Shown here piece by piece: positions 1 through 16,254 of a DNA stretch of 64,000 nt. Position numbers and translations under genes: made by a program. This DNA comes from Candidatus Hydrogenedens sp. (GTDB lineage: Bacteria; Hydrogenedentota; Hydrogenedentia; Hydrogenedentales; Hydrogenedentaceae): contig JBMFRC010000001.1 in assembly GCA_049968235.1 (NCBI GenBank), positions 352,001 to 416,000 of the forward strand, written 5' to 3'. The notes under the pieces are model-generated. The model saw nothing but the letters and a program-made list of their open reading frames with translations, was not told the DNA's origin and ran no database searches. Numbering within the stretch: position 1 is the first letter of the stretch; every line of letters begins with the position of its first letter.

Positions 1-234
1 GGGTAATTTTTTTGACGGAGTATTTGTTCTAAATCTGTAGCAGGTGCGTAAACTCGTTCTGCCCAGATATGGGGGTGCGAATTTAATAATGAGTATAAAA
101 TTTGTAGTCCCAGATTCCCCAATCCTAATTCATATAAGTCAGGGAAAACCAGAGCGACCCGTAATTGAATTTCCTTTTTCGACTTGTGAATTGCATTCCA
201 TTCAGTTCCCAGATAACGAGAAGGATGTTCCACA
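1..234 (-). CDS. Radical SAM protein, TIGR03960-like N-terminus; partial, runs off the window start. Start is probably the GTG at 232-234, since no ATG is in frame.
   Basis: Minus-strand frame open from the TGA of the upstream gene (301-303) to position 1. It translates to ...LPYVEHPSRYLGTEWNAIHKSKKEIQLRVALVFPDLYELGLGNLGLQILYSLLNSHPHIWAERVYAPATDLEQILRQ. That matches the hallmark N-terminal PSRYxGGExN ... ALxFPDxYExGMSNLGxxILY motif of that radical-SAM family. Absent from the ORF track because its stop lies outside the window. Confidence 0.45.
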
Positions 235-300
235 TATGGAAGTATTTCATACTCGAAAACATTTTGATTTTCTGTTCGTTTTTTTATATTCATAATTACT

Positions 301-1608
301 TCATTTGGGGAATGATGGCAGGTAAGGGCTAACTTGTTGATTGGGTTTCGACCAGATAATTCTGCCTACAAGCACACACCCTTTTGCACCGCATTGTTTT
401 GCGTCTTTACTGAACATTCCCTCACCAACAGTTACCCAGGTCTCTTCCGGAGAAACTGCGGATACGCCAAAATTTCCCATAGTGGCACCGCGTTCAGGTA
501 AAACAATTTGTTCTGTCTTACGGATAACATATATTTGGTCATTATCTGTATTAACCTGAGCAATAAATAACGGAGCCCGATGTCGAATAATATGGTCATT
601 ATTAGCACCTTTCCTTGTGTAAACAAGGAATAATCCATCGCTATGCACTGCCCAATGTTGTTGTGTATTATAACTACCTAATTCAATTCCATCATCAAAT
701 AACCAGGGTTGTATTGGCTCATAATGTAGCCCATCATTACTCCATGTTACATATCCCCGTTCATCATTTCTAATAGTAAGATAATATTTCCCTTTATACT
801 TTGCCAGGGAGGGTTCACACATTCCCCGGGGGACTTCATGCGTAATAATATTTCCGTTTTTTAGATAGATAAGTTTTTCTCCATCAAATTTTATATGTAG
901 GACTGTTATGGAATAATTTTTGTTATTATCCTCTTTGTTTTTTGCGAAATAAATGGGCAGAAGAATGGTCCCATCAGGTTCGATTATCCATTGGGTACAA
1001 CCGGGCATAATGGAAAAAGCGTCTTTCAGGTCTCCACCCAAATCTAAGGTTTGCCATTTTGTCCATAAGTTTTTTTCGGGGTCGTAAATAGCATAAGCCC
1101 CTTCCAGACAGCCCTTATCCTCCCGGACTTGATGCCCATTATCGTCATATCGCAGGCGTATTCCGATAGCAATATATTTCTTTGTTTGTGGATGCCAGCC
1201 CGGGGTAACATCACAAACGCTTACTATATGTCCTCTTTCATCTTTTACCCAATCCAATTCCGGAACGGGTTGTGGTTCTGCCCATGTTTTTCCTCCGTCA
1301 TCCGTGTAAGAGAAAAACATACCGGAATAATAATCCGATACCATCAAATGCTTTTGCAAAGTCATTAACACTCGTGGATAGCCCTTAGAACTTATTACAG
1401 GTATTGTTGCTACACGCGGATGAAACCAGCAGAAATCATCTCCATCATAATTAAAAGCACATGACGGTTCTATTGCTCTTATAAGGTTTTCTTCCCCGGC
1501 ATAAGATAGTGAGGTAAAAAGAATGATGGATATAGAGAAGAAATGCAATTTAAAATAATGATTTTTCATAACTATTTCCTTTTTGAAAAATGTAACAGTA
1601 GCAAACAT
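301..1608 (-). CDS. Secreted BNR/Asp-box repeat protein (sialidase/neuraminidase-like beta-propeller glycosidase)
   Basis: N-terminal signal peptide (hydrophobic run, then SYAGEE). Asp-box motifs SYTDDGGKTW and WSNDGLHY (consensus S-x-D-x-G-x-T-W), typical of sialidase-like propellers. Confidence 0.6.
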   Translation of the reverse strand: MFATVTFFKKEIVMKNHYFKLHFFSISIILFTSLSYAGEENLIRAIEPSCAFNYDGDDFCWFHPRVATIPVISSKGYPRVLMTLQKHLMVSDYYSGMFFSYTDDGGKTWAEPQPVPELDWVKDERGHIVSVCDVTPGWHPQTKKYIAIGIRLRYDDNGHQVREDKGCLEGAYAIYDPEKNLWTKWQTLDLGGDLKDAFSIMPGCTQWIIEPDGTILLPIYFAKNKEDNNKNYSITVLHIKFDGEKLIYLKNGNIITHEVPRGMCEPSLAKYKGKYYLTIRNDERGYVTWSNDGLHYEPIQPWLFDDGIELGSYNTQQHWAVHSDGLFLVYTRKGANNDHIIRHRAPLFIAQVNTDNDQIYVIRKTEQIVLPERGATMGNFGVSAVSPEETWVTVGEGMFSKDAKQCGAKGCVLVGRIIWSKPNQQVSPYLPSFPK

Positions 1609-1890
1609 ATTATTTCGTATTTTGATGGCTATTTTAAAACAAAGGTACGCCGTTATGTGTCATAAAATGGGGAAAATGGATAAGGCAGAGGAAAGAATAG
1701 ACATTAGCAAGGCTACAGGTAATATTCGTTAAAGTATAAATATAACATCTTACCCCTGTGGAGTGAAATGCATCTTTTAGCCCACAATTATCTTACCCTC
1801 AGTGTTTGGTAGGAAAAGAGTTTCAAAAACCAGGTATTATTTTACTTAGAGGACATCCAAAAAACGCTCAGGAGGTATATGTTAGCAGTT

Positions 1891-2523
1891 TTACTTTATT
1901 CCCCTGCGTTTTAACTGTAAATATTTGTATTGCACCGCACATCCTAACAAGCCCAGTCCGAACCATGTGAGCATACTAACCATTCGGAAATAAGATGGTT
2001 CAAAATCGGTAGTGATAGAAAGGATACCTATCAGTTCCAGCAATCGTACCATAGCCCACACAATAATCAGCGAACCGATGGAGGATGTTGCAACAACAAT
2101 AACTATTTTTTCAATAAGAAAAGATAGAACACCTCCAAATATACCCGACATAAGTAAAATAATAGGATTATTCATCACAGGTAGCAAAATAATCCCAAAA
2201 GAAAATCCACCAATCATACCTAACAAAAATATTCCCGATTTGTAGAAAAGAATTGCTAAAAGGCTACCTATTATACCTAAAAGGAGTGAAAGAGCAATTG
2301 TTAGAGGGAAAAAATGCATCATATATCCTCCTAAAAATAGGAAGGAAGCAGAACTTAGTATGCCAAAACCCAGCAATCCGATAATCCAGTAAATCAGGCG
2401 ATAACCTGTAAAACACATCAGGAACCCCAAAACTATTATAAATAATATTGCAGACATATGTATAGGATAATTTAATATTTGTTGATAAATATCTACAGGT
2501 TTAATCAGACAAAAATAACTCAC
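1891..2523 (-). CDS. Polytopic membrane protein (hypothetical)
   Basis: 210-aa ORF with about six hydrophobic helices rich in G/I/L/F. No recognisable catalytic motif. Confidence 0.45.
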   Translation of the reverse strand: MSYFCLIKPVDIYQQILNYPIHMSAILFIIVLGFLMCFTGYRLIYWIIGLLGFGILSSASFLFLGGYMMHFFPLTIALSLLLGIIGSLLAILFYKSGIFLLGMIGGFSFGIILLPVMNNPIILLMSGIFGGVLSFLIEKIVIVVATSSIGSLIIVWAMVRLLELIGILSITTDFEPSYFRMVSMLTWFGLGLLGCAVQYKYLQLKRRGIK

Positions 2524-2535
2524 TTTTCCCTCAAA

Positions 2536-3621
2536 TCAAGTCGTGGTCTTCCTTTGTTTCTTGTATGAGAACCCGAGTAGTAGCAAAGTTAAGAGTAGAA
2601 TGGATATATCCCCTTTGTTTATCGATTCACTTCTCTGTTGAGAATCTATATTACAGGAAATAACATTTCGTAACCACGAACCTTGCCCTCCCATGTAAAT
2701 ATAGTATTTTTCCCCATATACCTCAATTACAAGTATTCCGGATACTTTATTAAAATCTCGAGGTGTAAATTTAACCTGAAATTTTACTATTCCCTGGGGT
2801 TCTACCAGAAATGTTCGTTCTCCGATAATCTGAAATTCAGGTTCTCCAATAATCCAGATGTAAAAGGGGATGTCTTCCGTGCCAATGTTCTGAACCGTAA
2901 ATTCGCTAACCACCGAATTTTTCAAGGATATACTACCGAAGTTCAGCATACTATTTACTGCGGGTGTAATTATTAGAGGGACATCTTTATCAATAGGCGG
3001 AATTTCAATTTCCCCTTCGTTAGGATTTTCTTGTGGAGTTACTGCATACTGAACAAACAAATCGAAATCTCCTTCCGCTAATAGGAACTCTTTGCGGTTC
3101 GAAATTAGGTCCCCATCAAGGTCTGCAGTTGCCCGTAGATATAATCCACCACTTAAATTATAATTTTTTAAATCAATATTAATTCCGACTTGACTAATAG
3201 CCCCTTGTACAAAGTACTGAATAGCCACAGGTTCTCCCATCGTAATAATTGCAGCACTGAAACGTTCAATCTCATCACAGGTAATACCATACAATTGCTG
3301 GATTGCTATACATTTACTACCCAATGTATTGTCCTTTTTTATCTGAACCCAATTAAAGTAATAAATGGAAAGCAGTAGGTCATGGTTAGGTACCGTCTCA
3401 TCTCTGAGAACACGGTCCAATAATCTCGCATGAGCACGGTCGGAAATGCCATTTTTATCCACATCGACCAGGTCAGGGTCGGTATCCGGGTCAAAGGCTT
3501 TGGTAATTTTTACAAAGGTATTCTCTGCTTCAATATCTAAAACATAGGCGGTCGAAGAAAAAAATAAAAATAAAGTAAAACCAAGAAAAATAATCGTTTT
3601 TTGTATATAAAAACTATTCAT
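2536..3621 (-). CDS. Secreted protein with a dockerin/EF-hand-like Ca-binding loop and a C-terminal membrane anchor (hypothetical)
   Basis: Signal peptide. D-rich PDTDPDLVDVDKNGISD loop (D-x-D-x-N-G-x-I-x-x-D). C-terminal ILLLTLLLLGF followed by a KKQRK basic tail. Confidence 0.45.
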   Translation of the reverse strand: MNSFYIQKTIIFLGFTLFLFFSSTAYVLDIEAENTFVKITKAFDPDTDPDLVDVDKNGISDRAHARLLDRVLRDETVPNHDLLLSIYYFNWVQIKKDNTLGSKCIAIQQLYGITCDEIERFSAAIITMGEPVAIQYFVQGAISQVGINIDLKNYNLSGGLYLRATADLDGDLISNRKEFLLAEGDFDLFVQYAVTPQENPNEGEIEIPPIDKDVPLIITPAVNSMLNFGSISLKNSVVSEFTVQNIGTEDIPFYIWIIGEPEFQIIGERTFLVEPQGIVKFQVKFTPRDFNKVSGILVIEVYGEKYYIYMGGQGSWLRNVISCNIDSQQRSESINKGDISILLLTLLLLGFSYKKQRKTTT

Positions 3622-3757
3622 ATTCCAATAATTAAGTTATCCGTTTTTTTATTAGACTGTATTTGCTGTAAAATAGATTTATAATATTTACATTTATTTA
3701 TTGAATATCGTTCCAATACTCTTAGTTTCATTATATTAAATTCACGAGGATAAAACA

Positions 3758-3979
3758 ATGAAGTATTTTAAAATCGCACAATTTGTTCCCGGAAAGGGCG
3801 ATGCCTGGACTTATTACGAATGTGATGATAAAGAAACGATACAACGACAATTAACATATATTCCCGAAACAGGTGAAATTTCAAAAGTACCTGACCCTAT
3901 TGTCAAAAGGCTATATCGTCCGGAATTATTAGAACCTTCAACCTCAGAAGAATTTATATCCCTCTGGGGGAAAGAATAA
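3758..3979 (+). CDS. Small hypothetical protein (73 aa)
   Basis: ATG preceded by AGGAT. 31 nt upstream of the PHP-domain gene on the same strand. Confidence 0.35.
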   Translation: MKYFKIAQFVPGKGDAWTYYECDDKETIQRQLTYIPETGEISKVPDPIVKRLYRPELLEPSTSEEFISLWGKE

Positions 3980-4010
3980 CTTATTAAAGATATGATACGG
4001 AGTATATGAA

Positions 4011-4877
4011 TTGAAAATTAGAAGTCCTTATTTAAATTCTGTAAATTCTATTTGGGTAAAAGGCAATTTACACACACATACAACCGTAAGTGATGGTTCT
4101 TTTAGTCCACAGGATACTATATCCCGATATGCATCCATGGGTTATCAATTTCTTATGTTCAGCGACCATGATTTAATTACTCCTATAAATGGGCTGGACA
4201 CAAAAGGAATGATAATCATTCCGGGAAATGAAATCACAAATGACGGACCTCACCTCCTTCATGTAAATGCGAAGAAGAAAGTTGAACCCTATCCAAACCG
4301 ACAGAAGGTCCTGGATGAAATTCAAAAAGATAGCAATTTTGCTATTATTTCTCATCCTAACTGGGAAGAAGATTTTAATCACTGTCCCCAGGAGTTGTTG
4401 GAGAAATGGGAACATTACACCGGTATCGAGATATACAACGGTATTGTCCGTCGCCTACCGGGTAACCCCTGTGCCACAGACCGCTGGGACTTACTCCTTT
4501 CTCGGGGAAAATTTGTCTGGGGATATGCCCATGATGATGCCCATTGGGAAGAAAATTTCGGCGTTGCATGGAATGTCGCACAGGTCGAAAGTTTAACATT
4601 AGAGAATGTTCTTAATGCCCTAAAAAATGGAAACTTCTATACCAGCACAGGAGTTGAGATAGAAAAAATCCATGTAAATTCAAATACAATATCCATAACC
4701 ACATCCAATGCTAAGAAAATCGCTGTTATCGTTGATTATGGACGGAGAGTTAAAGAGGTTTGTGGGAATTCCATTTGTTATGAAATTAGTGAGACATTTC
4801 CATATTCCTACATTCGTTTTGAATGTTGGGGAGAAGGTGAAGCCCAGGCATGGACACAGCCATTCCAGTTCGTATAG
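4011..4877 (+). CDS. PHP-domain metal-dependent phosphoesterase
   Basis: N-terminal NLHTHTTVSDGS motif (HxH...SDG) plus downstream His/Asp clusters (FSDHD, ISHPNWEED, YAHDDAHWEEN), typical of the PHP/histidinol-phosphatase fold. Confidence 0.65.
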   Translation: MKIRSPYLNSVNSIWVKGNLHTHTTVSDGSFSPQDTISRYASMGYQFLMFSDHDLITPINGLDTKGMIIIPGNEITNDGPHLLHVNAKKKVEPYPNRQKVLDEIQKDSNFAIISHPNWEEDFNHCPQELLEKWEHYTGIEIYNGIVRRLPGNPCATDRWDLLLSRGKFVWGYAHDDAHWEENFGVAWNVAQVESLTLENVLNALKNGNFYTSTGVEIEKIHVNSNTISITTSNAKKIAVIVDYGRRVKEVCGNSICYEISETFPYSYIRFECWGEGEAQAWTQPFQFV

Positions 4878-5066
4878 AGATGAAAAAATAAAGTATACTC
4901 AACATAAAGAAGGAATATATACAAAAATACAAACAAGATTGTTTCTATGAAATATCACAAATTTTTTTTTTCGACATCCAAAAGTTGTTTATTATATGAT
5001 TAAAAACCCGGTATATTAAAATCTGAAATAAAAATGACAAAAAAACATCTATGAAGGAGTTGTATC

Positions 5067-6635
5067 TTGATTGAGTATGTAACATTACATTGGATAGATT
5101 TAACGATCATTGGCGTTTATATGGTAGGTTGTTTTGCATTAGGCACCTATACCAGTCGGTATATTGAAAATGCAGGAGATTTCTTTATTTCAGGTAAATC
5201 CCTCCCTTTCTGGGCGATTGCATTTTCTATCGTTGTGAGTGACATCGGAGCCTTAGACTTTGTTGGAGTTGCCGGAAATGCTTATAGATACGGAGTATCT
5301 GCTGCTAATTTTGACTGGTTAGGGTCCATGCCTGCTATGGTATTTGCCGCATTTATATTTGTTCCTTACTTCTGGCGTTCAGGGGTATTTACCATTCCCG
5401 AATTTTTAGGAAGAAGATATAACTCAGCGGTTCAGGTAATTAATGCTCTTATCTGGACCTCTGTAATGTTATTGTCTCTGATGATAATGCTCTGGACAAC
5501 AGCGGATGACCTTGTCTATACCATTTTAGGATATAAACCTATATATACAGTTTGGGTTATGGCGGGTGTTACAGGTTTCTATACCTTTGCAGGAGGATTA
5601 TCCGCCGTGGTAATGACCGATGTAGTTCAGTTAATAGTAATGTATGTTGGGGGGTTAGGTTTGCTGGCATTAAGTTTATGGGAAGTCGGTGGATGGAGTG
5701 TTATGAGAGCCAAAATAGAGGCACTCGGTCCGGAATATGCAAATCATTTTACAATTCTTCTGCCAAACAGCATAGAAAATCCATTCCCATGGACAGGAAT
5801 TGTCTTCGGTCTGGGTATTGTTCTTGCCATCGCTTATATGAGTGGAAATCAGGCAATTGTTCACAGAACATTGGGCGCCCGTTCTGAATGGGATGCCAAA
5901 GCAGGGATGCTCATGGGAGGTTTTTTGAAGTCTTTTATTCCATTAATGGTAGCTCTGCCCGGACTCTGCGCTATTGTTTATCTGCATGAAAGAAACATTA
6001 TATTGCATGAACAGGATAAAGTTATTCCCACTATGATACGGATGATGCTACCACCAGGATTACGAGGACTTATGTTTGCAGCTCTTTTTGCTGCATTAAT
6101 GTCCAGTATCTCCGGCACTCTTAGTTCTGCTTCCACCATATTTGTTACAGATATTTTCAATAAGCTCTGGACATTAGGAAGAAAAAAATCATTAGACGAA
6201 AAACAGGCTTTATATGTGGGACGAGGTTTTACCTTGTTTCTTATCATAAGTAGTGCCATCTTTGCGGAACAAATATCACGAGTTGGTGGAATTTATAATT
6301 TTATCCAAACTATTTTGTCTCTATTTCAAGGTCCCTCTCTGGCTATTCTATTGCTTGGAATTATGTGGAAACGAGCCACCGGTTGGGGAGGTCTGGTAGG
6401 CTTAATATCCGGCGTCTTTTTCTGTTTTATTTTATGGTGTGTTCCCAACCTATTCCCTGCAGAAGACCCATTCTTATTTGTTTCCATGTGGTCTTTTGTC
6501 TTCTCAATCATTGTTACTGTAATAGTTAGTCTTCTAACCCCGCCCGAACCCGAAGAAAAGATTCGGGGTTTGGTCTGGGGGTCTGTTGTTCAGGATATAA
6601 AAGCACAAAAAGCCTTAGCGGAAAGGATTCAATAA
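5067..6635 (+). CDS. Sodium:solute symporter family (SSF) transporter
   Basis: 522 aa, 13-14 TM helices. N-terminal GAxDFFxxGxSLPFWAIAFSIVxSDIGA and GRRYNS motifs, characteristic of the SSF (SLC5-like) family. TTG start with a GAAGGAG SD 8 nt upstream. Confidence 0.8.
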   Translation: MIEYVTLHWIDLTIIGVYMVGCFALGTYTSRYIENAGDFFISGKSLPFWAIAFSIVVSDIGALDFVGVAGNAYRYGVSAANFDWLGSMPAMVFAAFIFVPYFWRSGVFTIPEFLGRRYNSAVQVINALIWTSVMLLSLMIMLWTTADDLVYTILGYKPIYTVWVMAGVTGFYTFAGGLSAVVMTDVVQLIVMYVGGLGLLALSLWEVGGWSVMRAKIEALGPEYANHFTILLPNSIENPFPWTGIVFGLGIVLAIAYMSGNQAIVHRTLGARSEWDAKAGMLMGGFLKSFIPLMVALPGLCAIVYLHERNIILHEQDKVIPTMIRMMLPPGLRGLMFAALFAALMSSISGTLSSASTIFVTDIFNKLWTLGRKKSLDEKQALYVGRGFTLFLIISSAIFAEQISRVGGIYNFIQTILSLFQGPSLAILLLGIMWKRATGWGGLVGLISGVFFCFILWCVPNLFPAEDPFLFVSMWSFVFSIIVTVIVSLLTPPEPEEKIRGLVWGSVVQDIKAQKALAERIQ

Positions 6636-7078
6636 TGAATATCTATACAAAAACTATTTTTTCTATACTCTTTGTTCCCATAATTTGCACTATGTTTTCC
6701 ATTAGCGCATTTACACAAACAAATGAAACTGCCTCTAAAGATGTGGATATTCCCAAAGCAGAGGTTTCTTACATATTTCATCTTGCAGATAAAGTAGTGG
6801 ACAGTTGGTTAGCGTTCCTAGACGGATTGGGCAGGACATTTGACCCTATCATAAGACCTATTTTCAGACCTATTACAACATTCTTAGAACGCACTTATCA
6901 GCCCTGGGCTAAAATATGTGCTCTGGGATTATTTGTTGGCACTATGCTCTGGGTATGGCTCGGAATGCCTAAAGAATATGTTAACCTGGGTAGAAAAAAG
7001 AAAACTGTGTGGACAGATCTAAGATTGTGGACAATCATTTCCATGCTTCCTCATATTATTGTATATCTATACTTCTAA
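6635..7078 (+). CDS. Small membrane protein translationally coupled to the SSF transporter
   Basis: TAATG stop/start overlap with the upstream transporter. N-terminal signal/TM segment and a C-terminal TM pair. Confidence 0.5.
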   Translation: MNIYTKTIFSILFVPIICTMFSISAFTQTNETASKDVDIPKAEVSYIFHLADKVVDSWLAFLDGLGRTFDPIIRPIFRPITTFLERTYQPWAKICALGLFVGTMLWVWLGMPKEYVNLGRKKKTVWTDLRLWTIISMLPHIIVYLYF

Positions 7079-7094
7079 CTTAGGAGATTTTCAT

Positions 7095-7388
7095 ATGGCA
7101 AACGAAGAAAAGAACATAAATACTCAGGACCGCGGCGAAATGCACCGCATTGATAATGAACGAAATCAAGGAGTGCAATTAGAACATAGAGATGCAGAAT
7201 TATATATTGTGATGGGGATTTTTGTAGTGGCTTTAGGTTTGCCTGTTATTTTAGGGACTTATTTCTCCATGCAAGCAAGTAATTACCGACCCGCAGTTGT
7301 GAATTTTATTTGCGGTGTTGTAATGACGGGTATTGGAATAGCATCAATCCTTTACGGCTGGGCTATGAAGAAAAGACTCTTGTCGTGA
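7095..7388 (+). CDS. Small two-TM membrane protein (hypothetical)
   Basis: ATG at 7095 preceded by a TAGGAG SD at 7081-7086. The tracker start at 7059 is probably too long. Two hydrophobic helices. Confidence 0.4.
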   Translation: MANEEKNINTQDRGEMHRIDNERNQGVQLEHRDAELYIVMGIFVVALGLPVILGTYFSMQASNYRPAVVNFICGVVMTGIGIASILYGWAMKKRLLS

Positions 7389-8011
7389 ACAACACAGTTC
7401 CTTCAGGATATATACCGCTTCGTTATACACAAAAAGAAGTTCCTTTACGACTGCCTGTCCCGCGATTTTATCGCTATCGAACACAGATTAGTAAATTATT
7501 TCTATCATTCTCAGGCAAAGTAGTCCCTCTACCCATACAAGAATTACCTAAGTATGAGTTAGTCGCCTGGCCTCTGTATATAGTCCGATTCTTTTTACAG
7601 TCTGGTACAGAGAAAACACAAGAAATATTTATCGCTGTAGATGCCTGGACAAGAACAATTGCACGATTTGAGCGTATAAAAGAGATACAAGACACTCCTA
7701 CCGCAGATTTTCAATTATGGATTAAACCTTCTATATCATTAGACGAAGTAAAATCTATCGCCCGGTACGGACTCATGCATCAGTTGCTACGCCAGCGAAG
7801 ATTACAACCTGCCCCTGAAACGGTTATACCCGAAATTATATTTTTAGTTTATACGCCTATATGGGCATGTTATTTTGCACGAACTCTACACTCCTTAGAT
7901 GTTCGACTTCTCGATGGTTATTCCGGTGAAAAAATAGGTTCCCAAACCCGAAGTGCCTTCTTAAATGCTCTGATACATCATCACTCTGAAAAATCAGGAA
8001 CTTCTTATTGA
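7385..8011 (+). CDS. Hypothetical protein; probable GTG start overlapping the upstream stop (GTGA)
   Basis: Open frame 7310-8011. The GTG at 7385 overlaps the TGA of the upstream gene, a classic coupling arrangement. No recognisable domain. Confidence 0.35.
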   Translation: MNNTVPSGYIPLRYTQKEVPLRLPVPRFYRYRTQISKLFLSFSGKVVPLPIQELPKYELVAWPLYIVRFFLQSGTEKTQEIFIAVDAWTRTIARFERIKEIQDTPTADFQLWIKPSISLDEVKSIARYGLMHQLLRQRRLQPAPETVIPEIIFLVYTPIWACYFARTLHSLDVRLLDGYSGEKIGSQTRSAFLNALIHHHSEKSGTSY

Positions 8012-8169
8012 AAACAACTATATACTTTGTATATACCTATTAAAAACTTTCACCTCGAACAATCGGAAATTATTTTAATATAAATTAGTGGAAACTTTTT
8101 ATATTTGTGCTAAAGTTAATATAACACCTAAAAAGTTTGCAGTAAATTTCCCCAGATAATGCAAATATT

Positions 8170-8415
8170 CTACATGGCCAGCAAGATATAAAACATTTCC
8201 TCCTCCCGGAAATGATTAAAATGAGCCGAATTCCCAAAAGCACCAAACTCATCCCACATTACAGGAAGTTCACTTGCAGATAATGATAATCTCGAAGGAT
8301 TATTAATATCTGTAATTAAAAATCGCTCAACACATTTTCTTAATCTCGGAACAGGACTTAAATCACCTAATTTCACGGCAAACCTATCTTTTATAGGAAG
8401 GGAATCGTCATACAT
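8170..8415 (-). CDS. Small hypothetical ORF downstream of the pilin-like pseudogene; possibly a remnant
   Basis: 81-aa ORF with no recognisable motif. The H-x9 spacing after NSAH is followed by FY rather than the DG of the DUF1559 C-terminus, so it may be a decayed 3' piece of the pilin-like gene. Confidence 0.2.
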   Translation of the reverse strand: MYDDSLPIKDRFAVKLGDLSPVPRLRKCVERFLITDINNPSRLSLSASELPVMWDEFGAFGNSAHFNHFREEEMFYILLAM

Positions 8416-8492
8416 CTTTACTACCTACTGTAACATTCCTATCCTCTCGGGCTTAAAATACTGAATAGCCTGAATCATAACCGCGCAAGGGT

Positions 8493-8981
8493 CTACTCCG
8501 AGAGGAAGTTACTTGTGTTTGATGGAAGAGGCACACCTGGTTTAATTAGCATATCAGGGTGTGGAGCCCATCCAAAATAATTGTAACTGCCTTTATCAAA
8601 TTGGCAGGGTAATATAGGTTTATTGAAATCATAATCTACATGAAATCTCGTACGAACAGATTCTGCATCAGAATCAGAAAGGAATACACAGATATTAAAA
8701 TCCGGCATATATTCTGGATACAATAGGGTAGGTTCAAAAATTGCATCGAAAACGAAATTGCCATGACAATCTAATAATTTTATGGGAGGATAATACTCTC
8801 CCTTTGCTTCATTCGCATACATTTCAAATATTACACCCATTTGTTTTAAATTATTCTGACATGACGAATGTCTTACCGTCTCTCTTGCTCTTGCTTATGC
8901 AGGCGATAATATTGTAGCAAGATTCCCTATAATCGCAATGACAACTAATAATTCAATCAGCGTAAATCCTTTCTTTTTCAT
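8493..8981 (-). pseudogene. Prepilin-type N-terminal cleavage/methylation-domain protein (planctomycete DUF1559-like pseudopilin), interrupted by an in-frame TAA at 8895-8897
   Basis: Minus-strand translation from ATG 8979-8981 gives [65 protein letters not shown]... This is the canonical T2SS/T4P-like leader plus the ARARE..[8 protein letters not shown](M/I)G motif. The stop falls exactly where the conserved Leu of ...PALARARE is expected (TTA to TAA). The frame is preserved on both sides. Confidence 0.6.
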
Positions 8982-8989
8982 TTTTAATC

Positions 8990-9360
8990 TCCTTTCCAAA
9001 TAAGGTTAAAATTTTATTTTTATCGATATGAGTTCTTTATATCACATGATATAACATAATAAATATTAATAACCAATAATGATTATTATAATAAATATAT
9101 TATATTATAACATGTTATTCAATGTTAATTTAATATATAATTTAAGTTATTATACAATAGTAGAAATTATAATAGAATATCAATATTTGTTATACTCATT
9201 ATTAATATTTACTATTATATCTCTATTTTACTAAAACGTTCTAACTATGCTATCGATTTATAGGAGTAATACAAGAATTACTCTTGAGACCTCTGAATAA
9301 AAAAATACGATAAATAGTATATGAAAAATTATATATAGGAAGGGTAAAAGGGAAAAGTAA
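8990..9360. repeat. Extremely AT-rich non-coding core packed with short palindromic A/T words
   Basis: About 370 bp of almost pure A/T (e.g. ataatgattattataataaatatattatattataa). No ORF. Lies between the pilin-like gene start and the 3' end of the GntR-ABC operon. Confidence 0.7.
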
Positions 9361-10013
9361 ATATGTGGTATGATGAAAGAGGCAAAGCAGGTAAGTTTTT
9401 TATATTATGCAGTGTCAAAACAAAGACTGACATGATGAGAGAAATGATTGAGAGTAATGCAAGAGATAACCCTGTGGGAGAAATTGGAATGCAGATGAGT
9501 AGAGGGGAGAGTATAAGTCAAACCGGGGAGAGCGGAGGAGTTCGTCTTTACTATTTTATGCATTTTTGAATACTGAGTGATGATTTTTCTGTGTTCTCTG
9601 TGGTTGATTACATTTTTTCACCACGGAGGACACAGAGGAGCATAGATAAAGGAGCATATCATTTCTTGCTAATGACTGCATATAATTTAAAACGGATGTA
9701 TGGAAAATTAAGGAAACAAAAGGAGAGATATGCATAGATAACAAAAAGATAGAAAAACGGACAGAAAACAACAAATAAAATGGGTAAAAGTAAAAATATA
9801 GACTCTTGCATTTTAATTCCTCATCGGGGTTTTATCTCGTAAAAACATGTATAATTTATACTCTAACCTCTTACACAAATTGTTCAGAGGTCTCATTGAA
9901 TAATAAGACTCTATGTAATTCAGATAGAAAAGCCCGTGTCTATTTTAATGAATTTTCCATTCGTCCTGTTTGCCTAATTGGGTCGCTCGGTCTTACTTGC
10001 TTTTATTGAAGAC

Positions 10014-12356
10014 TTATTGGGGAATAAGTGAAGAAAAGTCAACATTTGCTGATATATCTGGCTGGCGACGGATATTTAAAGGAAGCATTATAAAAACATA
10101 ATCCCCTTCTATCCTATGTTTTATTCCTTTTTGTAAATACATATCTACCCCGCCATCATCTTTTCTATCCATGCCTATGCTATATATTTTAAATGCAAAG
10201 TCATCTCCTTTTATATATGTAATTGGTTCGCCATTTTTCCATGGGTCCTCAGGAATTTTAGAAATATAATCGGGAACAAGTTCTTTTAGATTATCAGGAA
10301 GCCGATTATTTTTCAAACGAAATCGTTCAATGGCTATAGCGGTTTGAACAAGATTTATAAGAACATAGTGCCGTAATTCGGAATCAAAACAGCGGTCCAA
10401 TGACGGGTATATTATGTTGAGGTTTATATAAAGCCAGTGTGGGGGAATAGATGTGAAGAGTGAATTTATTTCTCTCTTTTTCAGAAGATGAGTCTTATAG
10501 TCATCGAACGAACATTTTTCTTGTATGCAAATGTTTTCTTTTTGTGCTACATTGGTAGCCGTTTTTCTTAGTGCGGTATATAGATTCATTGCCACCATTC
10601 TTTCTATATCTGTAAGATAAAAAACATCAAAGATAGGAACCCATGATTTAATTATATTTCTCAATTGATAATATTGAAGGTACTTATATTTTTGTATCCA
10701 GGAACTATATTCAATTAAGAATCCTTCTCTTTGAACCATAGGTAAAACAGACAGAAACATCAGTAATTCTGTATGTAAACTCAAATTAAATAAGGACCTT
10801 TCTTCAGGAGGTACCGAAAAATTCTGAACAATATTACTTAATTCTAAAAGTACTTCTTCGGATAGTTCTTGATGATTAATAATCCATTCTAAATTATCAT
10901 AGAATTTCCTAAACATGGCAATATATACAAGTTGTGAAATATATACAGGTTCATCTTTTAGAGATTTAGAAACAGAGGCACAGGTTCGCAATGCCCGCAA
11001 CATATTTCCATAATCACCATCTATGGCACTTAAAATAGCCTCCAACCCTAATTTCCTCTCAAAATCTCGCAATTCGGAAAGATGTCCCAATTCCACAGAA
11101 TAACCCTTAGTTAAATCAATTGAATAGTACCCTTTTGTTAGACCACTTTCAGCAGTTTCATGGAGTTTTTGGGTTAATTTTTTATATACCTTCTCGTAAA
11201 CTTCTTTATATAACCAGTAGAGATTTTCCGATAGGGGCTTATCATATCTTATTATATCGCCATAAAAACGGTTCAATATTATCTTTAGATATTCTTTTTC
11301 TTCCTGTGTTTTAAATTTTTCATCAATCTCCTTTTGATACAATTTTTCAAAATCCATTTCCTTCAAAATGACATCTCGACAAAGAGGAAATAAATCGTAA
11401 TATTTCCGGGCAATGTTCTCCTTTTGCGGAACGGAACTATATTTTTCATTCATTTCTTTTAAGGTTGCAGGGAGAGAATTTCCTCTAAAATAAGCAATAC
11501 ATTTTTCAATAGTTCCTGTTTGTAAATGGGAAATAAGCGTTAAGATTGCAAAACAAAGGGGCAGTAAATATCCAACACATAAGAATGAAACCCGTTCCTC
11601 TATATACGGAGAATTCCCAGAATTTTCCAATAAATCTTTCTCTGGTGTTTTCCAATAATAACCATGTGCAAATAACAGAAGATTGAGCCATGTTATAGCA
11701 AAGATTGCAGATAAGAACAGATATGTACCTCCAAGTATGGATGTATTAAGAATACCCAAATATTGCCATGGCACTATGCAGACAAAAATACTAAGGAAAA
11801 TAATTAGCAGGAAAATCCTTTCTTTTTTCCCTAACAAACGGGCTCGGATTGTAATGAATAAATAAACAAAAAACATGATAAGATAGTAAAAATAAACTGC
11901 ATGAAAAACGATATAGATAAGGGAAAGAGAAAATTTCCTACATGAAGGGAAAATAATAAATAACAAATTCTTAACAAAAGAAATAAGCCACGAAACCCCT
12001 TGCCCTATTCCAAAAAGATGATATAGGGTCATAAACCATTCTTTATTTGAGTATATATAAAAGGAGGACAATGAATAAAAAGATATAAGCAGACACAGGA
12101 CAAGAAACGAAAAGATAAGAATACTTGATGGGTTAAACATGATTAACCAGACAATTATCCCATAAGTAATGACAATCCCGGTAATAAATATCATAAGGGG
12201 CATTAAGAAAGAATTTATATCAGGGAAAGGAATCTGCAAACTTGCCAGAGCGGGGTCTGGTACAATATGCATCTTAAACTTCCAATAAAAATAGATAAAC
12301 TCTATATCCAGATAACAGGCAATGTTATGAAAAGATTTATGTTCCCTGCTAACCAA
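10014..12356 (-). CDS. Large membrane protein: N-terminal polytopic domain, central soluble domain, C-terminal GspG-type pseudopilin-like motif
   Basis: 780 aa. The first ~270 aa carry 8 or more hydrophobic helices. The C-terminus reads LPDNLKELVPDYISKIPEDPWKNGEPITYIKGDDFAFKIYSIGMDRKDDGG. This matches the T2SS major pseudopilin C-terminal consensus (LPxDL...DPWGxxY...FDLxSLGADGxxGG). Confidence 0.55.
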   Translation of the reverse strand: MVSREHKSFHNIACYLDIEFIYFYWKFKMHIVPDPALASLQIPFPDINSFLMPLMIFITGIVITYGIIVWLIMFNPSSILIFSFLVLCLLISFYSLSSFYIYSNKEWFMTLYHLFGIGQGVSWLISFVKNLLFIIFPSCRKFSLSLIYIVFHAVYFYYLIMFFVYLFITIRARLLGKKERIFLLIIFLSIFVCIVPWQYLGILNTSILGGTYLFLSAIFAITWLNLLLFAHGYYWKTPEKDLLENSGNSPYIEERVSFLCVGYLLPLCFAILTLISHLQTGTIEKCIAYFRGNSLPATLKEMNEKYSSVPQKENIARKYYDLFPLCRDVILKEMDFEKLYQKEIDEKFKTQEEKEYLKIILNRFYGDIIRYDKPLSENLYWLYKEVYEKVYKKLTQKLHETAESGLTKGYYSIDLTKGYSVELGHLSELRDFERKLGLEAILSAIDGDYGNMLRALRTCASVSKSLKDEPVYISQLVYIAMFRKFYDNLEWIINHQELSEEVLLELSNIVQNFSVPPEERSLFNLSLHTELLMFLSVLPMVQREGFLIEYSSWIQKYKYLQYYQLRNIIKSWVPIFDVFYLTDIERMVAMNLYTALRKTATNVAQKENICIQEKCSFDDYKTHLLKKREINSLFTSIPPHWLYINLNIIYPSLDRCFDSELRHYVLINLVQTAIAIERFRLKNNRLPDNLKELVPDYISKIPEDPWKNGEPITYIKGDDFAFKIYSIGMDRKDDGGVDMYLQKGIKHRIEGDYVFIMLPLNIRRQPDISANVDFSSLIPQ

Positions 12357-13099
12357 TAGGTATAAATTCGTTCTTTTCGATTCATAGGGATATGGGACAA
12401 CAAATAAACACCTGATTTATAATCTCTTCTCATCCGTCGGCTTACTTTCAAATGCCAGACAAGCCCTGATAACACTAAAGCAATCAGTGGGAAAAATACG
12501 AACAGTAAGTCCAGTAAGTAAGAATAGTCGAAGGAGACTATCCACCGCATTGCCAGCAATATAAACATAACAGAAACATAAAGAGTAAAAAGTAAAAACC
12601 AGAAAATACCCGTCCATACGGGAATAATCAGTCCATTATTTCTGAGTTCAAACCAGACCTGAGCAATTTGACTATTCGGAAAACTTTTAATAACCATATT
12701 CGGTTCTAATTTGCTTAGGACACTACGAAGACGCAAAGGAAGTAATAACTTTATATCTTTTTTTATGCCAGTCCTTACCTGTGAAGTAATTTTTACACTC
12801 AAAAACCAGATGAGGTAAGTATAAAGTATTACTAACACCAAAAATATTAAGTAAGTATATGTAGAAAAGGATATTTTATTTTCATACTCTGCACCTGTAA
12901 AAGGTAAAGAACCAAATAAAAAGGGAATTACCCTATCCATAATAGTTGCATAGTCCAAAACTGCTAATATCACACATGAAAAAATAGAAAGAAATATAAT
13001 TATTCCTACCAAAAATGGTGAAAAGACAAAAAACCAGCATAAAAATTGAATAGTGAGATACACAATCCCATGTATAACAGCAGGGAAAATTAAAGGCAC
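12302..13099 (-). CDS. Polytopic membrane protein (possible permease component of the GntR-ABC operon)
   Basis: 265 aa, about 6 TM helices. Overlaps its neighbours at both ends, consistent with operon coupling. Confidence 0.45.
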   Translation of the reverse strand: MPLIFPAVIHGIVYLTIQFLCWFFVFSPFLVGIIIFLSIFSCVILAVLDYATIMDRVIPFLFGSLPFTGAEYENKISFSTYTYLIFLVLVILYTYLIWFLSVKITSQVRTGIKKDIKLLLPLRLRSVLSKLEPNMVIKSFPNSQIAQVWFELRNNGLIIPVWTGIFWFLLFTLYVSVMFILLAMRWIVSFDYSYLLDLLFVFFPLIALVLSGLVWHLKVSRRMRRDYKSGVYLLSHIPMNRKERIYTYWLAGNINLFITLPVIWI

Positions 13100-13542
13100 A
13101 TAAAAAGGAAGTTCAAGAGGGAAAAATTTTGAAAGGCATCCATGTATCTATGGGTAGATAATTCATAAGGTACATATTCTGATAAAATAAAAGCCACAAC
13201 AAACCGTAAAAGAAAAGTAGAGAGAATAACTAAAAAGAGCCGTGTAAATAAAGATACAGTTACAATTAAAGATAAAGTTATGGGAAGATGAAATATTCTA
13301 TGTGGAAAACCAATATGCATTTCTCCGGAATTACCTATCTGAAGGAGTAAAAGAATGGATATAGCATAAACCGTAAGATACAAACTAATGTCTACATCTT
13401 TCCAGTCAACAAGAAATATGGGGACAAAAATACGAAAGGAAATAGCAACAAATATGCACATTCCTAAAACAACACCAAAAATACTACCCCCTACATATAA
13501 TTCCTCCCACAATAAGGCTTTCCGAGACGAGTTAAGTTTCAT
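13090..13542 (-). CDS. Small polytopic membrane protein (operon member)
   Basis: 150 aa, about 4 TM helices. Lies between the ABC ATPase and the 265-aa membrane protein. Confidence 0.4.
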   Translation of the reverse strand: MKLNSSRKALLWEELYVGGSIFGVVLGMCIFVAISFRIFVPIFLVDWKDVDISLYLTVYAISILLLLQIGNSGEMHIGFPHRIFHLPITLSLIVTVSLFTRLFLVILSTFLLRFVVAFILSEYVPYELSTHRYMDAFQNFSLLNFLFMCL

Positions 13543-13666
13543 AAAAATTACTCCTTATCTTGTTTTTTCACATAAGCAATAAAAATTTCTTCTAACGATG
13601 GAATAGCGATATTAATTATCTCTCCACCTTGTTGTTGTATTTGTTCTTTTATGTTTGTGTTATTCC

Positions 13667-14478
13667 CTACACACAAAACCTGATACCCATGGCCAGGGAA
13701 TTTATTCGTTTTATACCGGGGATATTCTTCAAATTTAATTTTTTATTGTTCATCCTCACTTCTAACAAATAGTGTTGTTTTTTTATCTCTTCCAGATTTC
13801 CATTCATAACAACTCTACCATGATGAAGCATGCATACATCATCCGATACTCGTTCTACTTCATCCAATAAATGCGAGGAAAATAACACAGTTCGTCCTTC
13901 TTCGGCTACGGAACGAACTACTGCTGATAATATATCCATCCTCGCTACCGGGTCTAAACCTGACGATGGCTCGTCCATACCAACAACTCCGGACGATGTG
14001 ATAATGCTACCAGTAATCCTGTTCGTGCTAATTCGCCCAGTGATAATGCCCGTATCTTACGTTTCGGGTCTAATTCAAACTGTTCAAATAATTGATATGA
14101 ATATGTCATATCCCAATTTGGATAAAAAGCGGACATATAACGGATTAATTGTTCAATACGCATCCATCGGGGAAGGTCCCGCGTTTCTGATAAGTAACCA
14201 ATACGGCTGAGTACCTCTTTTGGATACTTCACGGGATTTAGACCAAAGACAGAAACAGAACCTATCTCTACGGTATAAGCACCTAAAATATGATGAATAA
14301 GAGTCGTTTTCCCGGCTCCATTTTCCCCTACCAAACCAAATACCCGACCCTGCAATACTTCTATCGTTACATCATTTAGAGCACACTTTCTCCCGAAATT
14401 CTTGCATAAGTTTTCGGTCTTAATGATAATTGAGTCTTTTTTTCCTTCAGATTGTTTATTCATGGTCTTTCTCCTCAT
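13667..14478 (-). pseudogene. ABC transporter ATP-binding protein (YtrB-like) split by a 1-nt frameshift near 13976-13980
   Basis: Upstream piece has Walker A GENGAGKTT, a Q-loop and the signature LSLGELARTGLLVAL, then ...HRPELLV. The downstream piece starts in another frame with (L)DEPSSGLDP (Walker B/D-loop) and the H-loop SSHLL. Joining them needs one extra base to give ELLV-L-DEPSSGLDP. Confidence 0.7.
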
Positions 14479-14860
14479 CCATGTGCAGTTTTATTTGTTC
14501 TGCGCGGGACTGTATTAGTTCTAATAACTGGCTTAATGAAAAGTTAAGGTGCTTTGCTATAACCAATAGAGAATCTATATGTTCATATATGACGCGGTAT
14601 CGTTCTTCATCGGAAAATAATGTTCGTATAGTAGCCACATAAGTACCGGCTCCAGGACGGGTATAAATCATCCCTTGATTTTCCAGTTCCCGATATGCTT
14701 TGGATACTGTATTGGGATTGATTAACAGTTGTTGAGCCAATGTGCGAACAGGAGGTAATTCATCTCCATTTTTCAAAGAACCTGTAGCAATTAGGTATTT
14801 GAACTGCCGAACAATCTGTAGATATATTGGCGTTCCATCTTGAGTATTAATTCGAATCAT
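14456..14860 (-). CDS. GntR-family transcriptional regulator (short YtrA-like subfamily)
   Basis: 134 aa. N-terminal winged HTH with the GntR signature ...LPPVRTLAQQLLINPNTVSKAYRELENQGMIYTRPGAGTYVA. Overlaps the start of the ABC ATPase gene. Confidence 0.8.
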   Translation of the reverse strand: MIRINTQDGTPIYLQIVRQFKYLIATGSLKNGDELPPVRTLAQQLLINPNTVSKAYRELENQGMIYTRPGAGTYVATIRTLFSDEERYRVIYEHIDSLLVIAKHLNFSLSQLLELIQSRAEQIKLHMDEEKDHE

Positions 14861-14874
14861 AATTTGAATCCTAA

Positions 14875-14902
14875 TGTATTACTGTTCTACTAATATAATA
14901 CA
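14875..14902. promoter_or_regulatory. Inverted repeat TGTATTA-N14-TAATACA just upstream of the GntR gene; candidate autoregulatory operator
   Basis: Exact 7-nt inverted repeat at 14875-14881 and 14896-14902, 15-42 nt upstream of the GntR start codon (minus strand), inside a 485-bp divergent intergenic region. Confidence 0.25.
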
Positions 14903-15345
14903 ATTTTTCTCCCGTTTGTCAATACCTTTTTAATATTTTTTCATTATTTCATATCTTATTTTTTATCAATTATTTATATATGCTATGTCTCTTAATTCTT
15001 ACGCAGGAGATTATTGTAAAGAAAAAATTTTTACAGAGTTTTATCAATTTTAGGGGATATAAATTATTTGAAAACAGTGATGTCATCTACAATTATTGTT
15101 GTCTATATTGCTCGTAAGTTTTGAGAACGGATTTCCTTGCTTAGATAGTATAAAAGAAGAGAATAATCCTCCCATTTTTTATTTACTTTAATTACAAATC
15201 TGATTTTACTTCTCGATTACATGTATAATTTATCCTAAAACCTCTTCTTCTTTTTATTCAGAGGGCTCAATTAGTGTATCTCTTTATAAATCGTTTATCA
15301 ATAATAAAAACATAACATACTATACAGAAGGGAAACAGATAAGGT

Positions 15346-16254
15346 ATGTTACAGATAGAAAAAATAGACATCCAAAAAATAAATGCAATAGCAGATATGT
15401 TGGAAACAACGACAAAGATTATAAACAGCGGATTGGATGAATCAGCAATAAGTTCTATGTATAATGAATCAACCCCATTATGGGTCCGAACAGTTAACAA
15501 TCAGTTCTGCGGGATAATTAATGATAGCAATGATATAAAACTTATTATTTCAACTGCGAAAAGAAAAGCAGAAGAAGGGGCGCCTATACTTGTTCAGCAG
15601 GGGATAGAAGGAAAAACCTGTTATCTAATCGGTTATCGTATGTCATACCATTTTTTTCCTGTAGAAATTTTTGGTGTAGAGTTTATTCCCGGAAATTATC
15701 GTATTCCTCGATTGTTATGGTTGCCTGTAGAATTTCCCGGAAAAGAATTAAAATCCATAACAGAAAAAGCCAAAGAAGTTGCCCGGAATCTTCCCCTTGG
15801 ATATTATGGTGTGTTATTTGAATTCGTTGTAAATGCACAGGGTGTATTTTTATCTTTTATTGACCCATTTTTCCAGCCGGATGAAGGAATGTGCCAGATA
15901 TGTAAGGAAGGAACGGGCATGGATTTAATGCGGATACATCAAACTGTTGAAAAACAGGGGATTCCTGATGTGGTTCCTACACGCGAATTAGGATGTGCTA
16001 TAGCGTGGATTATCCCGCATAGTGGAATTGTGCAAAGTATAAAGAACATTGAAAAGGTGCAAAGCACGGAGGGAATTAAGCAGGTGTATATACGAGTACA
16101 TGAGGGAGATTCGCTCACTCATATAACAGATATAGATTCCCGTAATAAAACAGGATATGTAATTGCTATTGGTCCGGATGCCTTTACCGCACGGAATAGG
16201 GCGTTATCTGCAGTTTCGCGAATACAAATCAATACGCGTAATCTTTTACCTTGA
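15346..16254 (+). CDS. ATP-grasp-like domain protein (hypothetical)
   Basis: 302 aa. PILVQQGIEGKTCYLIGY and GYYGVLFEFVVNAQGVFLSFIDPF resemble the central and C-terminal ATP-grasp motifs. No clear N-terminal pre-ATP-grasp domain. ATG start with AAGG upstream. Confidence 0.4.
   Translation: MLQIEKIDIQKINAIADMLETTTKIINSGLDESAISSMYNESTPLWVRTVNNQFCGIINDSNDIKLIISTAKRKAEEGAPILVQQGIEGKTCYLIGYRMSYHFFPVEIFGVEFIPGNYRIPRLLWLPVEFPGKELKSITEKAKEVARNLPLGYYGVLFEFVVNAQGVFLSFIDPFFQPDEGMCQICKEGTGMDLMRIHQTVEKQGIPDVVPTRELGCAIAWIIPHSGIVQSIKNIEKVQSTEGIKQVYIRVHEGDSLTHITDIDSRNKTGYVIAIGPDAFTARNRALSAVSRIQINTRNLLP

Follow-up and report, generated by a model that had tools for sequence, protein, structure and literature searches.

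A long intergenic gap in Candidatus Hydrogenedens sp. that very probably holds a degenerate, internally deleted IS5-family insertion sequence

The stretch of DNA analysed here (the window, 64 kb) contains one exceptionally long tract between two genes. When stop-to-stop ORFs of at least 100 aa are counted, the longest ORF-free run is located at 8895-10013 and spans 1119 nt, against 481 and 464 nt for the runners-up in the window. An earlier sequence-only reading had described this gap as unusually long, which is borne out. Both genes that flank the gap are on the minus strand; the gap lies upstream of a prepilin-like gene and downstream of the gene for a large membrane protein. The features of the region are as follows.

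8085..8981, minus strand: prepilin-type pseudogene (N_methyl and DUF1559-like; N_methyl E 3.5e-9)
8982..9284, no strand: native AT-rich spacer, 303 bp, 16% GC (from its composition; outside the IS homology)
9285..9895, plus strand (transposase sense): very probably a degenerate IS5-family element, 611 bp, collinear with the 1365-bp element of contig L018
9285..9300, plus strand: left terminal inverted repeat TGAGACCTCTGAATAA, 15/16 complementary to 9880-9895
9337..9574, plus strand: N-terminal transposase remnant, aa 2-76, interrupted by four stop codons and a frameshift (tblastn)
9578..9650, plus strand: deletion-junction segment, ~70 nt, for which the intact element offers no credible equivalent (only scattered blocks in the global alignment)
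9636..9737, plus strand: C-terminal transposase remnant, aa 310-343 (RSIDKGAYHFLLMTAYNLKRMYGKLRKQKERYA), with a TAG stop (tblastn, BLASTP)
9738..9895, plus strand: non-coding 3' end of the element, including the invariant block TGTATAATTTAT (9848-9859) and the right repeat (alignment with the right ends of L018, L033, and L039)
9880..9895, plus strand: right terminal inverted repeat TTGTTCAGAGGTCTCA, which pairs with the left repeat across 579 nt
9896..10013, no strand: native DNA, 118 bp, from the right end of the IS to the stop codon of the minus-strand pseudogene (10014-10016); the IS homology stops at 9895
10014..13554, minus strand: large membrane-protein pseudogene in three reading frames (tblastn against relatives)
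15160..15269, plus strand: solo right-end remnant of the same element, ~110 nt (right-end alignment)

The prepilin-like gene starts with MKKKGFTLIELLVVIAIIG on the minus strand, its ATG being at 8981. The SBP_bac_10/DUF1559 model scored 21.1 bits in this pseudogene, just below the cutoff of 23.3. An in-frame TAA is found at 8895-8897, where relatives usually have Leu, together with at least two frameshifts. The large membrane protein has homologues of 1114-1181 aa (P0001-P0006; ~1170 aa). In the window, tblastn recovered it in pieces at 13093-13554, 12305-13147, and 10017-12416, and the homology stops near 10035. The ORF on the gap side (10014-12356, minus strand) has its end at 10014. An exact-protein look-up of the 780-aa ORF found no record, as expected of a pseudogene fragment. 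The gene belongs to an operon of GntR, an ABC ATPase, and the ~1170-aa membrane protein (10014-14490, minus strand), an architecture also seen in relatives. The GntR gene at 14456-14860 remains intact; the coding sequences of the ATPase and of the large protein are each broken into three reading frames. Inactivating lesions had been noted earlier in both flanking genes, and both sets are confirmed, the TAA and frameshifts in one gene and the three-frame split in the other. Identical lesions are present in the 99.9%-identical contigs of two other assemblies (L007 and L010), so they represent genuine gene decay rather than assembly or sequencing error. The prepilin-like gene, the ABC ATPase, and the large membrane protein, together with the IS remnants described below, form a stretch of gene decay of ~6.5 kb.

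Peptides from all six frames of window 1-16000 were set against loci from the closest relatives (L001-L006), and matches were confined to the GntR-ABC-membrane protein operon; downstream synteny was absent, and 8982-9950 had no match in these loci. The comparison of the same spacer in related genomes, proposed earlier as a check, therefore had no orthologous spacer to draw on. The scan for tRNA and tmRNA yielded zero genes.

The native part of the gap next to the prepilin-like gene is extremely AT-rich. The GC content is 13.5% in 9000-9199 and 16.1% in 9000-9284, compared with 38% in the window as a whole, in agreement with the AT-rich core that had been described. The palindromes reported in this core do exist, but they are not above chance: the top inverted-repeat score, 14, falls within the 14.3 +/- 2.9 obtained from dinucleotide shuffles. 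The inverted repeat I2 (9048-9072 / 9199-9223) was considered as a pair of MITE ends and rejected, being at chance level for this composition. A phasing of AA/TT and A-tracts at 10-11 bp, the sign of DNA curvature that was looked for, is absent; the power at periods of 9.5-11.5 is under the shuffle mean, and 0.87-0.90 of the shuffles match or exceed the observed value. The best sigma-70-like matches are on the minus strand, at 9128-9099 (11/12) and 9193-9166 (10/12), and the count of such sites in 8982-9284 is no higher than in shuffles. This 303-bp segment is probably the promoter region of the prepilin-like pseudogene and, as read from its sequence, the putative AT-rich target that received the IS5-family element. 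Subtraction of the 611-bp element leaves 303 + 118 = 421 bp of native DNA; other long spacers in the window measure 231-464 bp, and the native spacer is thus typical of them.

Some further observations concern the same segment. A near-identical contig from another metagenome-assembled genome (L009) stops at window position 9155, inside the 16%-GC core. Within the gap, the window and L010 differ at just two positions, both in the AT core (9104 A/T and 9194 A/C). This contig break and these two differences probably reflect low coverage or sequencing difficulty in extremely AT-rich DNA. There is also a 7-bp hairpin, GAGTAAT-ACAAGA-ATTACTC, at 9262-9283, two bases outside the left end of the IS remnant.

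The remaining 611 bp (9285-9895) are, with high confidence, an internally deleted and degenerate IS5-family insertion sequence, as judged from homology and end structure. The reference for this assignment is an intact element in a metagenome contig (L018), which is 1365 bp long, has inverted ends, and carries TATA on either side. Its transposase of 343 aa matches DDE_Tnp_1 (E 5.8e-27) and DUF772, and scores 251 bits against the NCBIfam model NF033581 'IS5 family transposase' (cutoff 140). The left end in the window (9285-9300) matches the L018 left end TGAGATCTCTGAATAA at 15 of 16 positions. With the L018 transposase as tblastn query, aa 2-47 matched 9337-9489 and aa 54-76 matched 9506-9574 (joint E 4.7e-6); the N-terminal match is weak, with 45% identity and 4 stops over aa 2-47. 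The C-terminal residues, aa 310-343, matched 9636-9734 with 68% identity (E 4.6e-9 by tblastn; E 3e-13 by BLASTP), and the match is followed by the stop context TATGCATAG, the same as in L018. A phmmer search of 1.84 billion representative proteins with the translation of 9576-9734 gave one specific match, the same 343-aa transposase (P0007, E 3e-5), which is confined to residues 21-53 of the translation. A stitched translation of the remnants gave no protein match, only 2 candidates having passed the word filter. In DNA comparisons, 9648-9796 shares 73-75% identity with four copies of the element (E down to 5e-21; blastn against L018, L039, and L044, E 1e-19 to 1e-21), and 9842-9895 is ~78% identical to other copies. 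DNA identity to the nearest full-length element is no higher than 73-78%, and this element comes from another Hydrogenedentes-like population, not from the same genome.

The global alignment is collinear in two blocks: IS positions 1-427 correspond to 9285-9577, and 1100-1365 to 9651-9895. They are separated by a single large internal gap of ~670 bp, and the catalytic DDE core (aa 77-309) is missing from the window copy. With aa 2-76 and 310-343 only, it is a remnant of an IS5 family member and not a functional one, and it cannot transpose by itself. The strand composition fits the same origin. The plus strand of 9337-9800 contains 65% purine, with GC skew up to +0.59, so the purine skew described earlier is real; it is not exceptional, as several coding stretches of the window show a strand bias just as strong. 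The purine content is 62% on the L018 sense strand and 63% in the leader and coding sequence, and the purine richness of the gap thus matches the sense-strand composition of an intact transposase gene and its leader. No target-site duplication was seen at the window copy, whose flanks read CTCT and TTGA; it is plausible that the duplication was lost in an old, decayed copy. The earlier suggestion that the gap might be the scar of a past insertion is borne out by the deleted IS5-family element, its inverted-repeat ends, and its transposase pseudogene fragments. The same reading had taken a protein-coding gene revealed in the gap by homology as counting against it; homology does reveal such a gene, that of a dead transposase.

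Other copies of the element were found by end-motif scans. The copies share the pattern TGTATAATTTAT-N23-TTCAGAGGnCTCA with the same spacing. The scans gave six matches in genome contigs, of which L011 alone is genuine, and nine genuine matches in metagenome contigs (L017, L018, L022, L024, L031, L033, L037, L039, and L044); the others were chance matches in unrelated taxa. L004 is a further carrier besides L011, and the pattern also occurs at the extreme contig ends of L004-L006, from a distant Candidatus Hydrogenedens relative. The right end of ~110 nt is near-identical across L018 and at least 10 other contigs and stops in ...TTGTTCAGAGGTCTCA, beyond which the sequences diverge completely into 10 different flanks, AT-rich and mostly TATA-like. 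The majority of the right-end contigs break off at most 53 nt inside the shared sequence. Variable flanks after a constant end, and contig breaks at that end, indicate the end of a multi-copy mobile element. Since the sites of the element elsewhere are also AT-rich, an insertion at the present spacer is unsurprising. These contigs bring to light an abundant IS5-family element of Hydrogenedentes-like metagenome bins.

Nine contigs (L004, L005, L006, L011, L017, L022, L024, L031, and L037), which come from several assemblies, end inside an IS end or within 53 nt of one; in Hydrogenedentes-like genomes, the element repeatedly causes assemblies to break. The contig L011 is labelled 'uncultured Lentisphaera sp.', yet it has an identical end and the same flank as L044. 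Another metagenome contig, L033 (185-985), carries an independent internal-deletion derivative of 801 bp with both ends kept. At its junction, the N- and C-termini of the transposase meet in a repeated CRFR codon motif, which suggests a deletion between short direct repeats. This precedent shows that internal deletions recur in the IS family.

The two blocks of the window copy are joined by the junction segment, which contains the hairpin. The hairpin arms are 9588-9603 and 9621-9636, with the loop at 9604-9620. As the earlier reading had stated, 16 pairs can form, 14 of them Watson-Crick; the 2 T/G positions pair in the plus-sense RNA only. The plus RNA folds at -34.6 kcal/mol (z = -6.7), and the minus RNA at -20.8 kcal/mol (z = -4.7). 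No other copy of the element has this hairpin, and in the L018-type intact element the equivalent region folds no better than background (z = +0.33). It is present solely in 99.9%-identical strains, which show zero substitutions in 9285-9895. The 20 residues encoded across the hairpin had no homologue in the phmmer search of 1.84 billion proteins, and the P0007 match lies outside the hairpin-encoded part. An origin of the arms from transposase codons 78-95, suggested by MAFFT, was rejected; the identity is near random and the global alignment is unsupportive. An intrinsic terminator was also rejected, with no T-run after the hairpin on either strand. The pyrimidine-rich 5' arm stands out from the purine-rich strand around it, which hints at an inverted copy of the purine-rich 3' arm.

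The following course of events is proposed. An IS5-family element of ~1.3-1.4 kb would have inserted into the AT-rich spacer, with ancestral ends TGAGAyCTCTGAA...TTCAGAGGTCTCA and one DDE transposase gene of about 343 codons. Later, an internal deletion of ~670 bp would have removed the middle of the transposase gene and with it the catalytic domain. The 5' arm of the hairpin might have arisen as an inverted copy of the 3' arm, by fold-back or template switch during repair of the deletion; this step is put forward with low confidence. After the deletion, the leftover coding fragments would have gained stop codons and frameshifts. The remnant is probably without function, although it may have acquired a secondary, exapted role. 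Any present effect would be indirect, through spacing or through promoter-like sequences at its ends.

Self-comparison of the window showed that 9845-9895 is repeated at 15219-15270, in another long spacer. The window thus holds two remnants of the element, 9285-9895 and 15160-15269. The second one is located 77 nt upstream of a gene at 15346-16254 (Pfam domain LAL_C2, ATP-grasp-like). The right end also contains an invariant TGTATAAT, an extended -10-like sequence that lies 36 nt from the tip and points outward. The TGTATAAT/TGTATAATTTAT block is kept unchanged between copies that are otherwise ~78% identical. From its sequence, the TGTATAATTTAT block could be either a transposase-binding site or a portable promoter. 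In the solo remnant, TGTATAAT points into the gene at 15346-16254, as a possible IS-derived promoter. Two other interpretations of the motif shared by 9846-9895 and 15220-15269 were examined. Both a promoter with a leader hairpin and an operator for the adjacent GntR regulator were rejected, as the same sequence ends at variable flanks in many contigs.

In several IS families, the ends are known to carry outward-facing promoters. It is conceivable, but judged unlikely, that the present element likewise has a portable outward promoter in its right end, with TGTATAATTTAT as the candidate, and that the remnants were kept for driving neighbour genes. In that case, the solo end at 15160-15269 would serve as promoter of the ATP-grasp-like gene at 15346, and divergent transcription would arise from the 611-bp remnant, perhaps with a stable plus-strand RNA that includes the junction hairpin.

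A structured ncRNA, one of the possibilities raised earlier, would lie on the plus strand and be either the 51-nt hairpin alone or an RNA of ~610 nt closed by pairing of 9285-9300 with 9880-9895. The hairpin is indeed far more stable than shuffled sequences and better in the plus sense, and 9280-9900 as a whole folds with z = -5.5 on the plus strand, with its two ends paired. However, the closing stem consists of the terminal inverted repeats of an IS, a third copy of which stands alone at 15254-15269, and the interior is a transposase pseudogene. The hairpin, which is missing from every other copy of the element, including the homologous intact ones, is not followed by a T-run. The Rfam scan gave 0 matches at gathering score in the 64-kb window; a scan of the gap at E up to 10 gave only sub-threshold miRNA-like matches (15-22 bits against cutoffs of 45-200), those on the hairpin being chance matches to eukaryotic miRNA models at 17-22 bits and E ~1. 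A structured ncRNA is thus highly improbable. It is also very unlikely that the whole gap is an extended regulatory region of the prepilin-like gene, with curved or AT-rich DNA bound by nucleoid proteins. The 303 bp beside the gene start do have 16% GC, with the best sigma-70-like matches on the correct strand, but the next 611 bp are an insertion, and only 8982-9284 can therefore be native upstream DNA. Judging by the arrangement, the idea of curved DNA or nucleoid proteins could apply to this 303-bp part only. Even there, AA/TT and A-tracts show no 10-11 bp phasing, palindromes and promoter-like sites are no more frequent than in shuffles, and the target gene is a pseudogene.

Two further explanations start from the 611-bp unit itself. 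It might be an active non-autonomous element (MITE) that is moved in trans and of which this genome holds many copies. Its size and non-coding nature fit, both inverted repeats are intact, and a comparable deletion derivative exists elsewhere (L033). Against this, there is one copy in 64 kb, no target-site duplication, and the 68-aa ORF inside the unit has been recorded nowhere but at this locus. No further copy of this variant came out of the metagenome and genome scans, which is weak evidence, as the collections apparently lack the source genome and the copy number is a lower bound. An active MITE is accordingly quite unlikely. The same 68-aa ORF (9363-9569) might be taken as a small protein encoded by the gap, as it has an ATG start after a purine-rich stretch and one MAG annotation calls it as a gene (L010 and L047). 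However, it has no Pfam match, is recorded at this one locus only, and is read in frame 0, whereas the transposase remnants that overlap it are in frames 1 and 2. The gap almost certainly encodes no such protein, and the ORF is spurious.

The degenerate insertion sequence can be compared with three known systems. Like other members of the IS5 family (NF033581 'transpos_IS5_4'; DDE_Tnp_1 and DUF772), the window copy has terminal inverted repeats and the same order of parts (left repeat, leader, transposase, 3' non-coding region, right repeat), and its N- and C-terminal sequences are those of the transposase. A full-length relative is flanked by a 4-bp AT-rich repeat (TATA), and there are many insertion sites. 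Unlike these members, the window copy lacks the catalytic core (aa 77-309) and a target-site duplication, carries stops and frameshifts, and contains the extra hairpin-forming junction segment. The element itself seems to be an IS of Hydrogenedentes-like bacteria that has no name as yet. MITEs are known to be deletion derivatives of ISs (see, for example, PMC3852290). The window unit resembles such MITE-like internal-deletion derivatives in being short and non-coding, with both inverted repeats, and in corresponding to a parent IS minus its transposase; the multiple copies and target-site duplications that define MITE families were not found for the window variant. As in IS ends with outward promoters, the right end in the window has a conserved outward -10-like block, and the solo end faces the next gene. 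An apparent ncRNA candidate or odd regulatory tract thus turns out to be a dead insertion sequence, so the region should be annotated as a mobile-element remnant and dropped from lists of novel-RNA candidates. What remains is a decayed representative of a well-known class of mobile elements, from a poorly studied phylum.
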